Source: an uncultured Verrucomicrobiota bacterium
Lineage (GTDB): Bacteria; Verrucomicrobiota; Verrucomicrobiia; Limisphaerales; MWDV01
Direction: 5' to 3'
Length of the DNA: 64,000 nt
Assembly: GCA_964548925.1 (NCBI GenBank)
Contig: CAZJTM010000002.1
Span: 10,814 to 74,813 of the forward strand
Part shown: piece after piece, positions 4,353-61,143 of the stretch
Numbering within the stretch: position 1 is the stretch's first letter
Layout: each line of letters opens with the position of its first letter
Translations under genes and position numbers: made by a program
Notes under the pieces: generated by a model
Database searches by the model: none
Told to the model about the DNA's origin: nothing
The model's input: the letters and a program-made list of their open reading frames with translations, nothing else

Positions 4353-6310
4353 GGCGTGGGAGTGCGCTTCTTTCGCATGTTGGGTTTCCGGTCAAACGGC
4401 AGGACGGGGGAGTTCGTTTCGTTGCCGGGGGTCAACCATACCGCGCGGGCCTTGCCAAGCGCGCTGACTGTTCCGGTGGCGCGGTTCAACTTCACCACGG
4501 GCGCGGTAAACGAACTGCCGTCCGACCGCCGCACCAAAGGTTGGCCCAACAATTCGAGCACCTCGTCCGCCGCGGCATAGACGGCTTGGGCACACGTGGC
4601 CGTGGTCACTTGACCGTTCGTTTCGATGAGGCTCATCACGACATTTTGGTCGGCGGTGATGCCAACGACGTTGGTGCCGCCGGGGGAGAGCTTCACGGTC
4701 AGCGTGTCGCAGGTCAACCGCATCTGCGTGTCCTCCGCTCGCACGCGCCCGCGAAACGCCACGGCTTCGGGGCTCAGTTCGTACTCATTGCAGGTGATCA
4801 GCGTCGGTGGGCCATCTGCCGCCCCGGAATGGGCAATGGGTTTGGCGACGGCGGGTTCGTCAGGTCGGATGGCCAGCGCGTTCAACAAACTCCCAGCTTC
4901 CGCGCGCGGCAACGTGAGGCTCGCGTCGCCTCGGACGATAAAGTGGCTGCGCTGCAAATTCGCGAGCAACACCTCGCCGCGACCGGATCGGCCGCCGTCC
5001 CGCCAGGTGGGTTGGCCGGTGAGCTCCGCCACGCCGCTCGCGCCGTCGTAGCGTGCCTGCTCACCGGCAAGCCGACGCTCGCCCTGCTCGATGACGACAC
5101 GCTGCTCTGCCACAAGTTGCTGGACCTGATTGCTGCCGCCGAACATTGCGACCAGCGAGGAACAAGTGAGCCGGGCGCGCGTGACGTTGCCCGCCCGCTC
5201 GACTGCCTCCACGCCGCCGGTGAAGCTGGCGCGACTGGTTTGAATCTCATAACGCTCCGAGGTGATGGTCACGAACCGGTCCGTCGCGTCCGCCGTTTGC
5301 GCCACCGCCGCCTCTTGGGGAAGGAACCCCGTGCCGCTGATGGGTAGCTTGAGCTTTGCGCTGCCGTTCACCTGCAATGTCGTCGTGGTGCTGTTCAGCA
5401 ATAACTCATCGCCCCGGCCTTCGCGCGCCTGGGCCTGCCATTGAGCCTGGCCCGTGAGCTGAATCATGCCGTCGCCCGGCGAGAATACCGCCTGCTCGCC
5501 GGTGGCATGCAACTCGCCGTAATCAATTGCCACGCGTTGTTCCGCTACGAGCCGGTCCACCGCGCCCACGCCCGAGGTTGGCAGCCGGAATGTCAGTGCT
5601 TCACAGGCGAGACTCAGGTTCGTGGCCGTGACCCGCACGCTGCCACGATACACGGCCTGCGTTGTTTTACCGTCGTAGATGAATTGATCCGCTAGAATCC
5701 GCACGTCACCCAATGCCGGCGCCTCAGCTTGGGCCTCGCGGCTGCTCGTGGATTCAAGCCAGCCGCCACGGACGGTGGTGCGCACGCGATTGGAGATGAC
5801 GAGCAAGGCATTGGTCTGCCGCCAGAGAAAGCCTTCGCCCTCCAGCGCGAACCGGCCTTCCTGAAGCAGCATCTTGAGCGGGCGCGCGGAACTGGCTTCG
5901 CGCGTGGCATAGCTGAAGAGGCAATCTGGTGTTTCGATCAACATCTCACGCGCCCCGGCAGCCTGGAATTCCTCCAGCGTGACTTCCTCCACGAGCATGG
6001 TGCCGTTGGTTTGCGGGGTGGCTTGGGCGCCCTTGAGCAGCCAGCGGAGTTGGGTCTGGTGGGGAGGCTCGTAATAGACCGGCACGTTGAACTTGCTCAA
6101 CTTGACCCCTAGCGATGGCTGCTGGGCGGATGCTGGCACGACCAGCAACGCGAAGCCCAAGCTCAGACTGAGAACGCCTCTGAGTACGTGCCTTGGCCAT
6201 CGAGCTTGTCTTTCGTCCTCGACTTTCTTCCTCGGGCCCTGGCAAGGCTTCGGGGACGGGGACGAAGAACGAGGACGAGCGACCAGCGCTGGAGAGAAGC
6301 GGTTCATCAC
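4349..6310 (-). CDS. LptC-like plus three LptA/OstA-like domain protein
   Basis: Lies between kdsA and lptB. Three repeats of the I.(A/S/C)..Y....A.F.G.V...L.C..L.....V..L.A.Q.V pattern. GTGA overlap with the kdsA stop. Start uncertain. Confidence 0.75.
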
Positions 6311-7125
6311 TTCACGGTGTCGAACACCTTCAGCATCGCTTTCAACAAGGCCGGCATCTCGGCCAGCGGAATCATGTTTGGGCCATCGCTCATCGCCTTG
6401 TCTGGCAGCGGATGGGTTTCGATGAAGAGCCCATTCGCCCCCGCCGCCAGCGCCGCCTTTGCTAACACTGGCGCAAACTCACGTTGACCGCTGGAAGCCG
6501 TCCCGCCGCCGCCGGGCAACTGCACCGAATGCGTGGCATCAAAGATCACCGGGAAACCGAACCGCTTCATGATCGGGATGGAACGAAGGTCCGCGACGAG
6601 ATTGTTGTAGCCGAAGCTCGTGCCGCGTTCCGTGAGCAGCAGGTGCTTGCCGCCCGCCGCCTGGGCCTTCGCCACCACCTGTCCCATCTCCGCCGGCGAA
6701 AGAAACTGACCCTTCTTCAGGTTGACAATGTTGCCGGTGACGACCGCCGCCTCGATCAAGTCCGTCTGCCGGCACAGGAACGCCGGGATTTGGAGGATGT
6801 CCACGACATCCGCGGCGACGGAGGCTTGCGCTTCCGTGTGAACATCCGTCAGCACCGGCACGCCGAAACGCTCGCGGACCTTGGCCAGAATCTCCAGTCC
6901 CGCTTCCAGTCCCGGTCCGCGGAAAGACTTTCCGCTGGTGCGGTTCGCCTTGTCAAAGCTGGCCTTGAAGACGTAGGTGATGCCCAATCGGGCGCAAGTT
7001 CGCTTGAGCTGCGCGGCGACGTCGAGGCAGAGCTTTTCGTTTTCGATGACGCACGGCCCGGCGATGAGGAACAGCCGGCGCGTGTCGGTCAGGGATTTCC
7101 AGATGGTGGTGGTTGCGTCAAGCAC
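6307..7125 (-). CDS. kdsA: KDO-8-phosphate synthase
   Basis: [62 protein letters not shown]. Confidence 0.97.
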
Positions 7126-7214
7126 GCCGATGGTTTAGCAGGCGGGGGGCGGCGTGTAAATCCCGGGCTGAGCCGCGCCGGCCGGCTCGCGTTCTCCACG
7201 CGCAAGGAACTGGC

Positions 7215-7355
7215 TTACACATTGGCGGAACAGGGGCGCACGGGAGGATCATCGTGTACGACAGCAGTGGAACATGTGGTTCCCCGGCACCTGCGGTTGG
7301 CACGGGGAGAGGAGGCCACCTCGGAACCCTGATTTCATGGGCGGTGCTGTGCGGA
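7215..7355. ncRNA. Possible structured ncRNA downstream of tRNA-Ser (6S-like?)
   Basis: Nested pairings seen by eye: TCCCCG/CGGGGA hairpin, CAGGG/CCCTG, GAA/TTC. The segment GAGAGGAGGCCACCT..TTCA loosely recalls 6S RNA. No covariance search was run and the strand is unresolved. Confidence 0.25.
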
Positions 7356-7445
7356 TGGCGGAAGGGGTGGGATTCGAACCCACGGTAGCCTTGCGACTAC
7401 GCCTGATTTCGAGTCAGGTGCCTTTAACCACTCAGCCACCCTTCC
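7356..7445 (-). tRNA. tRNA-Ser (anticodon CGA)
   Basis: GGAAGGGTGGCTGAGTGGTTAAAGGCA CCTGA CT CGA AA TCAGG, long variable arm, GGTTCGAATCC, encoded CCA end. Confidence 0.97.
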
Positions 7446-60232: not shown

Positions 60233-60276
60233 CCTTCAAGGCCGGGGACTACTGCCATAACCCGACGCTGGATGCC

Positions 60277-60549
60277 ATGCCACACCTAACGAAGAACGAG
60301 TGGAAAGGGCTCTGGGCAATCCTCTGGCGCGTGTTGGTCCTTGGTCCGATCGTCGGCTTATTTGGGTTGGCTTTGCTCGTCATGATCATCGCTGTGTTTT
60401 TGGGGCCGCCCGCCTACGCGGCATTTGCCTTTCTTTCGGGGGATTGGTTGCTGGGAATCGTCGCACTCGCAGGTTGGAGTGTTGTGCTGTGTTTTAGACG
60501 ACCGTTTCTGCGTTGGACGTTGGAAGGCATCGAACACGCAAGCATCTGA
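60277..60549 (+). CDS. Small hypothetical membrane protein
   Basis: 90-aa, mostly hydrophobic ORF (MPHLTKNEWKGLWAILW...). Confidence 0.5.
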   Translation: MPHLTKNEWKGLWAILWRVLVLGPIVGLFGLALLVMIIAVFLGPPAYAAFAFLSGDWLLGIVALAGWSVVLCFRRPFLRWTLEGIEHASI

Positions 60550-60558
60550 ATGCGAGGA

Positions 60559-61143
60559 TCAGCGTCTGCTGTCGCCGGCGCAACCAAGCGGCTTCGCACT
60601 CTCGGTTCCGAACGGCTCCAAGCGGACAAGCGTCTCACCCGTTTCGAGTTCCTCGAGGAGTTCAGAAAAAGTGTTTTTCTGACCAGACAGCACGAACTTC
60701 GGAGCAATCTCGCTGAGCGGTTGAAGGACGAACCGGCGCAAGTGGGCCCGCGGATGCGGCAAGGTCAGGCTGGGTGTGTTGCGTGTCTGGTTGCCAAAGG
60801 AGATTAAGTCCAAGTCCAAGGGGCGCGGCTCGTTGAGGATTTGCTTGGGCTGCCGGCCAAACTCCTTCTCCAGCGCCTGAAGCTTCGCGAGCAGGGACTC
60901 AGGCGTTTCTCCGGCGCGCGGCGCGAACCCCACGACCGCGTTTACAAATGGTGGCGAGCTAGGGGGGCAGTCCACCGGCGAGGTTTGCCAGAGGGAGGAT
61001 TTCAGCAGGGGCGCATCGGAAAACTGCTGCAAGCGGTCCATCGCATTGCGGATAATCCGCACCGGGTCGCCCAGATTCGACCCGAGAGCCACAAAAGCCA
61101 TTTGCCCGTCCTCGGACTTCGGACTTCGGACCTCGGACCTCAT
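60559..61143 (-). CDS. folK: 2-amino-4-hydroxy-6-hydroxymethyldihydropteridine diphosphokinase
   Basis: ALGSNLG, FVNAV, RPLDLDLI, LPHPR..LRRFVLQPL. ATGA overlap with dapB; alternative start 61101. Confidence 0.93.
   Translation of the reverse strand: MRSEVRSPKSEDGQMAFVALGSNLGDPVRIIRNAMDRLQQFSDAPLLKSSLWQTSPVDCPPSSPPFVNAVVGFAPRAGETPESLLAKLQALEKEFGRQPKQILNEPRPLDLDLISFGNQTRNTPSLTLPHPRAHLRRFVLQPLSEIAPKFVLSGQKNTFSELLEELETGETLVRLEPFGTESAKPLGCAGDSRR

Follow-up and report, generated by a model that had tools for sequence, protein, structure and literature searches.

Repetitive extragenic palindromes (REPs) tagged with GTAG are found in many phyla (Di Nocera et al. 2013, PMC3733652), and prefer sites just downstream of open reading frames (ORFs), between same-direction and convergent genes. 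Intragenic copies that keep the frame encode 20-82 residues, and the GTAG type is most numerous in the verrucomicrobium Opitutus terrae (PMC3733652). REPs are in excess at the N-termini of ORFs, with the caveat that many of these may be extragenic and translation may start downstream (PMC3733652); Rickettsia proteins with an N-terminal Rickettsia palindromic element (RPE) of type RPE-1 are expressed (cited in PMC3733652). Inverted REP doublets (REPINs, REP doublets forming hairpins) are mobilised by the transposase RayT (Nunvar 2010; Bertels & Rainey 2011; Di Nocera et al. 2013, PMC3733652). Here we describe repeats at overlapped gene starts in a 64-kb contig stretch of an uncultured soil Limisphaerales bacterium (Verrucomicrobiota; contig CAZJTM010000002.1, positions 10,814 to 74,813), hereafter the window. 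We consider it reasonably probable that this genome carries several small palindromic repeat families, of which in-frame copies at overlapped junctions have been retained and are read as N-terminal extensions.

Repeats at overlapped gene starts

An initial annotation of the window had pointed to repeats at five gene junctions, and they are present at all five. In each case (5/5) an ATG or GTG overlaps the upstream stop and is in phase with the gene that follows, and no stop interrupts the frame. Pfam agrees with the gene identities first proposed (LptD_N/LptC, FG-GAP_2, DUF4381, a weak TPR match and HPPK): the junctions lie between kdsA and an LptD_N/LptC protein (site 1), between a response regulator and an FG-GAP protein (site 2), within an aerotolerance-type operon, MoxR-DUF58-DUF4381-BatA-BatB-TPR(BatC)-BatD (sites 3 and 4), and in dapA-dapB-folK (site 5). 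The frame stays open in mononucleotide shuffles with probabilities of 0.24, 0.06, 0.15, 0.04 and 0.68 for sites 1 to 5; at sites 2-4 no frame other than the coupled one stays open over the whole stretch up to the next possible start. The palindromic character ascribed to the repeats holds for sites 1-4, whose sense-strand RNA folds with z scores of -3.5 to -11.6 against shuffled controls, and fails at site 5, a tandem array with no fold signal (61105-61145, z +0.8). As also proposed, a signal-like hydrophobic segment follows the insert in four of the five cases, at least three unrelated repeat families are distinguished by sequence comparison, and no mobilising enzyme was found in the window, where Pfam on ~40 ORFs gave no transposase or recombinase and tblastn gave no RayT.

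The argument for translation begins at site 1. The same kdsA/lptA junction with a coupled ATG is found in the orthologous contigs L203 and L202 (85% and 72% protein identity; L-numbers denote the compared loci and contigs, ~2 Mb in all, and P-numbers the compared proteins), and both have a hairpin at the same position as the window. The peptide after the coupled ATG, MNRF(S/P)PA, is kept in the three species with synonymous differences at the DNA level, and RWP(R/L/S)(H/R)VL, between hairpin and hydrophobic core, is conserved in orthologues; in P0003, RWPSRVL is conserved upstream of the TTG chosen by the Prokaryotic Genome Annotation Pipeline (PGAP). In the window, the first ATG, GTG or TTG codon in frame after the coupled start is a TTG within the hydrophobic core. 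Because the flanking peptides are conserved in frame and there is no other in-frame start, translation through the site 1 hairpin is well supported at the sequence level, and these alignments place the true start of the LptA-like gene at the coupled ATG (6307-6305). PGAP starts the identical protein P0001 at TTG 6160 (MGFALLVV...), inside the signal-peptide core and ~49 codons short.

The site 1 hairpin, a shorter one, has CGTCCTC-like arms and folds at -34.6 kcal/mol (6205-6285, z -3.5). In more distant orthologues kdsC lies in between, the overlaps measure 4 nt and the n-region is shorter by ~28 residues (P0004 and P0013 for the n-region). The hairpin in L203 and L202, together with the shorter n-region of the distant orthologues, therefore indicates an old in-frame insertion, and not a fresh one.

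Sites 3 and 4 lie in the Bat operon and are related, with 74% identity over 138 nt; site 4 is 3 nt shorter and the unit measures ~135 nt. The arms of site 3 (41 nt) are 98% complementary and its fold reaches -97.8 kcal/mol (43600-43745, z -11.6); those of site 4 (33 nt) are 88% complementary (46500-46645, -69.4 kcal/mol, z -6.3). The motif GGACAGGCT-TCC-AGCCTGTC occurs four times in the window (43609, 43717, 46510 and 46615) against 0.15 expected. This REP, which we call REP1, is found as a 20-mer in at least 120 public metagenome contigs, mostly from soil and peat. GTAG or GTGG precedes nearly all of the more than 150 metagenome copies, as well as three of the four arms at sites 3 and 4 (GCAG stands before the left arm of site 4), and the metagenome copies frequently form inverted pairs 50-130 nt apart. 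Tag and inverted pairs are a REP/REPIN signature, by which the elements of sites 3 and 4 are REPIN-like, each consisting of two copies of a GTAG-tagged REP in inverted orientation. The notion of dispersed, non-autonomous elements is borne out by the similarity of the two sites, by the spread of REP1 among metagenomes and by contig L200, where REP1 flanks a RayT gene.

The L200 locus (1080-1808) has the layout of a REPtron, a 183-aa ORF with REP1 doublets on both sides. Its product matches Y1_Tnp (PF01797) at 28.9 bits, above threshold, and bears the Joint Genome Institute (JGI) name "REP element-mobilizing transposase RayT". Elsewhere, in ~20 contexts (metagenome loci L092, L097, L099, L126, L135, L177 and others), a long ORF terminates at the TAG within the GTAG tag, and the REP appears to supply, or to sit on, the stop codon.

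Relatives of the DUF4381 gene also bear on site 3. DUF58 ends with RRGRR(R/S)G*, an AGGAGG-like motif and an overlapped ATGA or GTGA in the window and in L002, L003, L004 and L006, and the coupled start of DUF4381 is kept in all four relatives. The five species keep DUF4381 in phase, with its frame uninterrupted, through different repeats, namely a REPIN in the window, GAAGGCA arrays in L002 and L003, GAGTCGA in L004 and, in L006, AAGTCCG plus 85 codons. The overlapped ATG is the only in-frame start ahead of TTG 43768 in the window, and no other in-frame start precedes the conserved DUF4381 hydrophobic segment in the window, L004 or L006. Since phase is kept in five species and an alternative start is lacking in three of them, translation through site 3 is fairly supported. 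At the site 4 junction, L006 has an empty ATGA site and L003 a heptamer array in frame after the start; translation through site 4 is plausible but unproven. As a side observation, BatB runs into BatC without a stop in L002 (14620-14720) and L004 (15210-15300), by fusion or assembly error.

The element at site 2 is composite: AAATCCG/TTCGGAT heptamer arrays form the outer arms (21706-21764 and 21896-21954), an inverted doublet of the REP-like GGAGTCCCGGCTTnAGCCGG (REP2; 21786-21805 and 21852-21871) makes up the inner part, and the whole folds at -163.6 kcal/mol (21700-21960, z -10.3). FG-GAP relatives start with MKKTK, MKTK or MKTR; the hydrophobic core comes immediately after, and then AQ(G/S)TAFTYQGRL. 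The n-region opened by the coupled start is typical of this family. With MKTK the coupled ORF opens as these relatives do, so that the coupled ATG looks ancestral, and translation through the element is plausible but unproven.

A second member of the site 2 family stands at the MoxR/DUF58 overlap, with arms 80-88% identical to those of site 2 and an inner REP2 doublet; it is out of phase and contains stop codons. The overlap is empty and intact in L002, L003 and L006. The orthologue alignment that had been advised thus defined empty sites at this junction, at hprK (L202) and at site 4 (L006) but none at site 2, whose FG-GAP relatives show 52-61% identity and include no syntenic orthologue. In all, the window has two REP1 doublets, two REP2 doublets with one to two single REP2 copies, and one doublet of a third type. 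One REP2 single copy (23309-23328, minus strand) lies at the 3' end of a sensor kinase gene, where its loop supplies the TAG stop. A repeat at 21552-21580 within the FG-GAP gene was rejected as chance periodicity in conserved coding sequence of normal length.

Site 5 behaves differently from what had been claimed. In the extended folK ORF the HPPK domain starts at residue 17, and translation from the internal ATG at 61101 would yield the canonical N-terminus, MAFVALGSNLGD; the repeat therefore lies in an untranslated spacer, and reading of folK through it is refuted. A repeat within dapB (61593-61625) was discarded for the same reason as that in the FG-GAP gene, being chance periodicity in conserved coding sequence of normal length.

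Table 1. Repeat elements and start codons, in window coordinates
Feature	Coordinates	Strand	Context
Site 1, imperfect hairpin CGTCCTCGTTCTTCGTCCCCGTCCCC...GAGGAAGAAAGTCGAGGACG	6212-6278	-	n-region of LptA/LptD_N-like protein
Site 1 coupled start, GTGATGA	6305-6310	-	GTG 6310-6308 overlaps kdsA stop (6309-6307), then ATG 6307-6305
Site 2, composite element	21705-21954	-	heptamer arms and inner REP2 doublet
Site 2 coupled ATG	21992-21994	-	ATGA overlap with response-regulator stop; opens MKTKPTLATRSEWQ
Site 2 alternative in-frame TTG	21704-21706	-	3' foot of hairpin, in the base of the -164 kcal/mol stem; would give MRPALLVLLLLATLISRLSSVAQS
564-nt composite element, site 2 family	42011-42574	+	exactly at MoxR/DUF58 ATGA overlap; flanks ATGA...ATGA
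Site 3, REPIN-like inverted REP1 doublet	43596-43749	+	GTAG-GACAGGCT-TCC-AGCCTGTC
Site 3 ATG overlapping DUF58 stop (ATGA)	43585-43587	+	AGGAGG upstream; Shine-Dalgarno dG -10.3
Site 4, second REPIN copy	46505-46639	+	in the same frame as site 3
Site 4 GTG overlapping BatB stop, then TTG-ATG-CAA	46408-46419	+	resembles ATG-ATG-CAG start of L003 orthologue
Site 4 alternative TTG	46645-46647	+	six bases 3' of REPIN; gives MARRAACAWCGLALLLLGLGGADAQ / MARRAACAWCGLALLLL
Site 5, tandem CCTCGGA heptamer array, non-palindromic	61110-61141	-	39-nt spacer, dapB stop to folK ATG 61101-61099
GATTAAG-armed hairpin	3453-3548	-	untranslated lptB-hprK spacer; z -4.4
TTTGCGA-armed hairpin	22440-22572	-	between two response-regulator genes; z -4.8
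Third GTAG-tagged REP doublet, GTAGCGGCG... / GTAGCGGCGACTCGG...	31238-31313	+	5' leader of 3,3xx-aa gene
Heptamer arrays	18865-18964; 61880-61907		61880-61907 in untranslated spacer

Further elements of the window are listed in Table 1. The hprK hairpin is present in L203 and absent from L202, whose empty state reads TGA-AGGCC-ATG, a clean 100-nt presence/absence between species with no visible target duplication. No open frame leads from the upstream stop through the TTTGCGA-armed hairpin. The third REP doublet lies 57 nt ahead of the canonical and true start of a giant gene, GTG 31370; the frame across the doublet is open fortuitously and provides a control for open frames due to chance. 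Two proteins also have palindromic or heptamer segments in frame within their internal loops. DUF58 has, relative to L003 and L006, an in-frame insert of ~32 residues in a variable loop (43142-43260), with a 26-nt inverted repeat of which one arm resembles nearby coding sequence (PDSVPPRVPP vs PRESVLPPAG). The sensor kinase (24360-24520, minus strand) has CAGTGGT- and CAAATCG-type heptamer arrays flanking ~20 extra residues, in frame, in a hypervariable loop of its propeller/Y_Y_Y region. An unrelated low-GC ORF lies between MoxR and DUF58 in L004 (10981-11638) and L005 (10981 onward); the 656-nt spacer it forms in L004 had been considered as an element and was rejected.

At gathering score, Rfam matches in the window amount to a single tRNA (7359-7445, minus strand), and none is an element. 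The window has a GC content of 63%. Its MoxR has its nearest species-level relatives in Limisphaerales/Verrucomicrobiae metagenome-assembled genomes (83-87% identity), and the metagenome-assembled genome GCA_036567685.1 holds a 4.8-kb contig matching window positions 39621-44450 at 99.7%.

Probable tolerance rather than targeting

According to the initial annotation, the elements were either targeted to operon junctions and signal-peptide n-regions or only tolerated there. There are ~9 same-strand junction elements in the window, and five of them are in phase and open (binomial p ~0.03 at a chance rate of 0.22, 0.14 at a rate of 0.33), so that inside the window alone the in-phase pattern exceeds chance only modestly. 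With relatives included the count becomes ~10 of 18 (p ~0.002 and 0.04 at the same rates). Among ~75 independent metagenome contexts of REP1, ~4 are coupled, in phase and open, which is roughly chance level and therefore shows no family-wide preference of REP1 for start codons; many REP1 copies in this set abut gene 3' ends, in agreement with the positions published for REPs (PMC3733652). A cruder classing of REP1 by ORF context against random positions was too noisy in high-GC DNA and was not used.

Comparable elements also lie outside coding starts, in spacers (3453-3548, 22440-22572, 42011-42574 and 61880-61907), in a leader (31238-31313) and on a stop codon (23309-23328). Targeting to starts is therefore contradicted, by these untranslated copies as by the REP1 contexts, and tolerance fits. 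Selection on surviving insertions at overlapped junctions is the better reading, in preference to an insertion specificity for start codons. The initial interpretation (non-autonomous palindromic repeats, some of them read in frame, comparable to the Rickettsia palindromes) is right in kind and wrong as to targeting.

Two classes of element would take part in such a process: inverted doublets of GTAG-tagged REPs, REPIN-like and elsewhere associated with RayT Y1 transposases, and hairpins whose arms are arrays of 6-7-nt units. Because ATGA and GTGA overlaps leave hardly any free intergenic DNA, an insertion surviving near the junction would lie within a few codons of it. The n-region of a signal peptide presumably accepts extra polar residues, and frame-keeping, stop-free copies could thereby be retained. 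The old coupled start would still be used, and the repeat would be translated as an N-terminal extension that signal peptidase removes. When the frame is lost, two outcomes can be envisaged: the start would move beyond the element (DUF58, hprK, folK), or a mini-ORF ending on the TGA of a second ATGA would restore coupling (BatA and BatB of L003). For the genome studied here we infer the translation itself, the removal by signal peptidase and the mobilisation by a RayT.

Competing explanations

Several observations weigh against this account. Each heptamer-armed hairpin has its own unit, a poor fit to transposition from a master copy. As in the window, tblastn gave no RayT in L002-L006, and the closest named relatives of the L200 RayT are in Acidobacteriota, not Verrucomicrobiota, from which it follows that the REP1 core is common across phyla. 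Annotation pipelines choose starts 3' of the elements (L001, P0001), and the TTG codons after sites 2 and 4 yield canonical signal peptides. Initiation would be impeded by RNA stems of -70 to -164 kcal/mol that begin 10-40 nt past the start codon. Lastly, chance open frames arise in a genome of 63% GC, and the giant gene has one of 142 codons upstream of its likely GTG start.

One alternative is that heptamer arrays and heptamer-armed hairpins were not transposed but arise locally, by replication slippage and template switching (inverted duplication). We regard this as doubtful. A local origin would explain why each junction has its own unit, such as the GAAGGCA, GAGTCGA and AAGTCCG found at the same DUF4381 junction in relatives, or the heptamer array present at every Bat operon junction of L003. 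It is also favoured by the marked excess of period 7 in the compared loci (45 tandem arrays, vs 2, 19, 4 and 5 for periods 5, 6, 8 and 9) and by the resemblance of the palindromic DUF58 insert to nearby coding sequence. Yet the AAATCCG-armed element exists in three related copies in the window, with arms 75-88% identical, and a TTTGCGA unit recurs at 22438 and 24363 with 93% identity. Nor does a local origin sit well with the clean presence/absence of the hprK hairpin or with the ATGA...ATGA flanks seen at three insertions. The period-7 arrays as such occur mainly in Verrucomicrobiota and other loci of the Planctomycetes-Verrucomicrobia-Chlamydiae (PVC) group, with many unit sequences.

It is unlikely, in our view, that no element is translated at all. 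The elements would then be intercistronic REP-type hairpins, with starts after them (TTG 6160, 21706, 43768 and 46645; ATG 61101), and the overlapped starts and open frames would be by-products of an A or G before TGA stops and of high GC. The start of folK after its repeat agrees with this, as do the downstream starts called by pipelines, the TTG codons of sites 2 and 4, the chance open frame before the giant gene and the warning that many N-terminal REPs are extragenic (Di Nocera et al., PMC3733652). Shine-Dalgarno motifs are seldom used in this genome and most secure starts of the window have none, so their strength is of no use in deciding between starts. Against this proposal, the residues on either side of the site 1 hairpin are conserved in frame among orthologues of 72-85% identity, and a start at the TTG there would reduce the signal peptide to MGFALLVV and remove its n-region. 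The DUF4381 genes of L004 and L006 and the BatD gene of L003 have no ATG, GTG or TTG in frame between the overlapped start and the hydrophobic segment. Across sites 2-4 the coupled frame alone is open, with the shuffle probabilities of 0.04-0.15 given above.

A further possibility concerns the heptamer-armed hairpins only. Of 43 heptamer arrays in all the loci, 14 start no more than 40 nt from a long ORF's stop, vs 18% of random positions, and most of these stops are ATGA or GTGA, with cases in Chthoniobacteraceae and Phycisphaerales loci too. ATGA...ATGA brackets three insertions, at 42011-42574 in the window and, in L003, between DUF4381 and BatA and between BatA and BatB; the L003 arrays at 12648-12735 and 13768-13822 stand between two ATGA motifs. 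Mini-ORFs of 28 and 17 codons in L003 run from the stop of the upstream gene to a TGA that overlaps the next ATG. The flanks could be a 4-nt target duplication or, equally, reflect the survivorship of events that kept both stop and start. It seems distinctly unlikely, though it is conceivable, that the hairpins are a mobile element of their own in PVC bacteria, which would insert at ATGA/GTGA overlaps and duplicate the ATGA, with coupling kept by N-terminal fusion or by a mini-ORF; duplication would then regenerate both the upstream stop and the downstream start. If true, targeting of ATGA overlaps would be a new insertion specificity and would provide a means of examining how far insertions are compatible with translational coupling.

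That the hairpins just after coupled starts are selected regulators blocking independent initiation, which would leave the downstream product to ribosomes coming from the upstream gene, or mRNA-stabilising or processing sites, is very unlikely: very stable stems do lie 10-40 nt after starts or bury an alternative TTG, the site 1 hairpin has been kept since a divergence of ~72% amino-acid identity with a few compensatory pairs, and the DUF4381 junction keeps its frame in five species, but close species have unrelated sequences at one junction, many copies lie where coupling is impossible (5' leader, 3' ends), the covariation term is unfavourable for the three sequences available, and no intrinsic terminator (GC-rich stem plus T run) coincides with an element in the window, where terminator counts do not exceed the shuffle expectation.

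Relation to known repeat systems

We return to retention of in-frame copies as N-terminal extensions, and compare it with described systems. With REPs and REPINs the elements share a short palindrome tagged 5' with GT(A/G)G, inverted doublets folding into a long hairpin, several families per genome, a position between same-direction genes near the upstream stop, and a RayT flanked by the same REP (L200). They differ in that two window copies stand after coupled starts and before signal peptides, and in that no RayT turned up in the 64 kb; their doublet spacing, ~107 nt, stands towards the upper limit of the spacers of most REP dimers, 20-100 bp (PMC3733652). Like GTAG REPs at large, they include in-frame intragenic copies, N-terminal ones among them (PMC3733652).

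The RPEs of Rickettsia (Ogata et al. 2000) are likewise palindromes of 100-150 bp in frame in functional genes, adding a hydrophilic peptide at tolerant sites. They belong to another phylum, are taken to have no sequence relation to ours (no RPE sequence was compared) and are spread along ORFs, whereas the elements here are mostly at junctions and many are untranslated. Miniature inverted-repeat transposable elements (MITEs) such as Correia/NEMIS, ERIC, RUP and Nezha resemble them in being non-coding, 100-600 bp long and bounded by terminal inverted repeats, and in lying beside or within genes with which they are co-transcribed. Unlike in MITEs, no parent insertion sequence (IS) is identified, a target duplication is at most suggested (ATGA, three sites), and the arms are tandem heptamers, not terminal inverted repeats of IS type. 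The cyanobacterial short tandemly repeated repetitive (STRR) sequences, reportedly described by Mazel and colleagues in 1990, are said to be tandem arrays of heptanucleotides with several unit types, mostly intergenic. The arrays described here, unlike these, are often complementary pairs that form hairpin arms, are found in PVC bacteria and often lie within ~10 nt of an ATGA/GTGA overlap.

Judged by its sequences, the present case fits the published picture of in-frame N-terminal REPs. It would provide a clear, orthologue-backed example of REP-type repeats becoming coding at one of the few sites that a compact operon accepts. One practical consequence is that automatic annotation would shorten such genes, as PGAP does when it starts the LptA-like protein within its signal peptide. 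What appears to be new relative to the described systems is the orthologue evidence that at least one N-terminal hairpin codes, and the link of such repeats to overlapped starts and to the n-regions of signal peptides.

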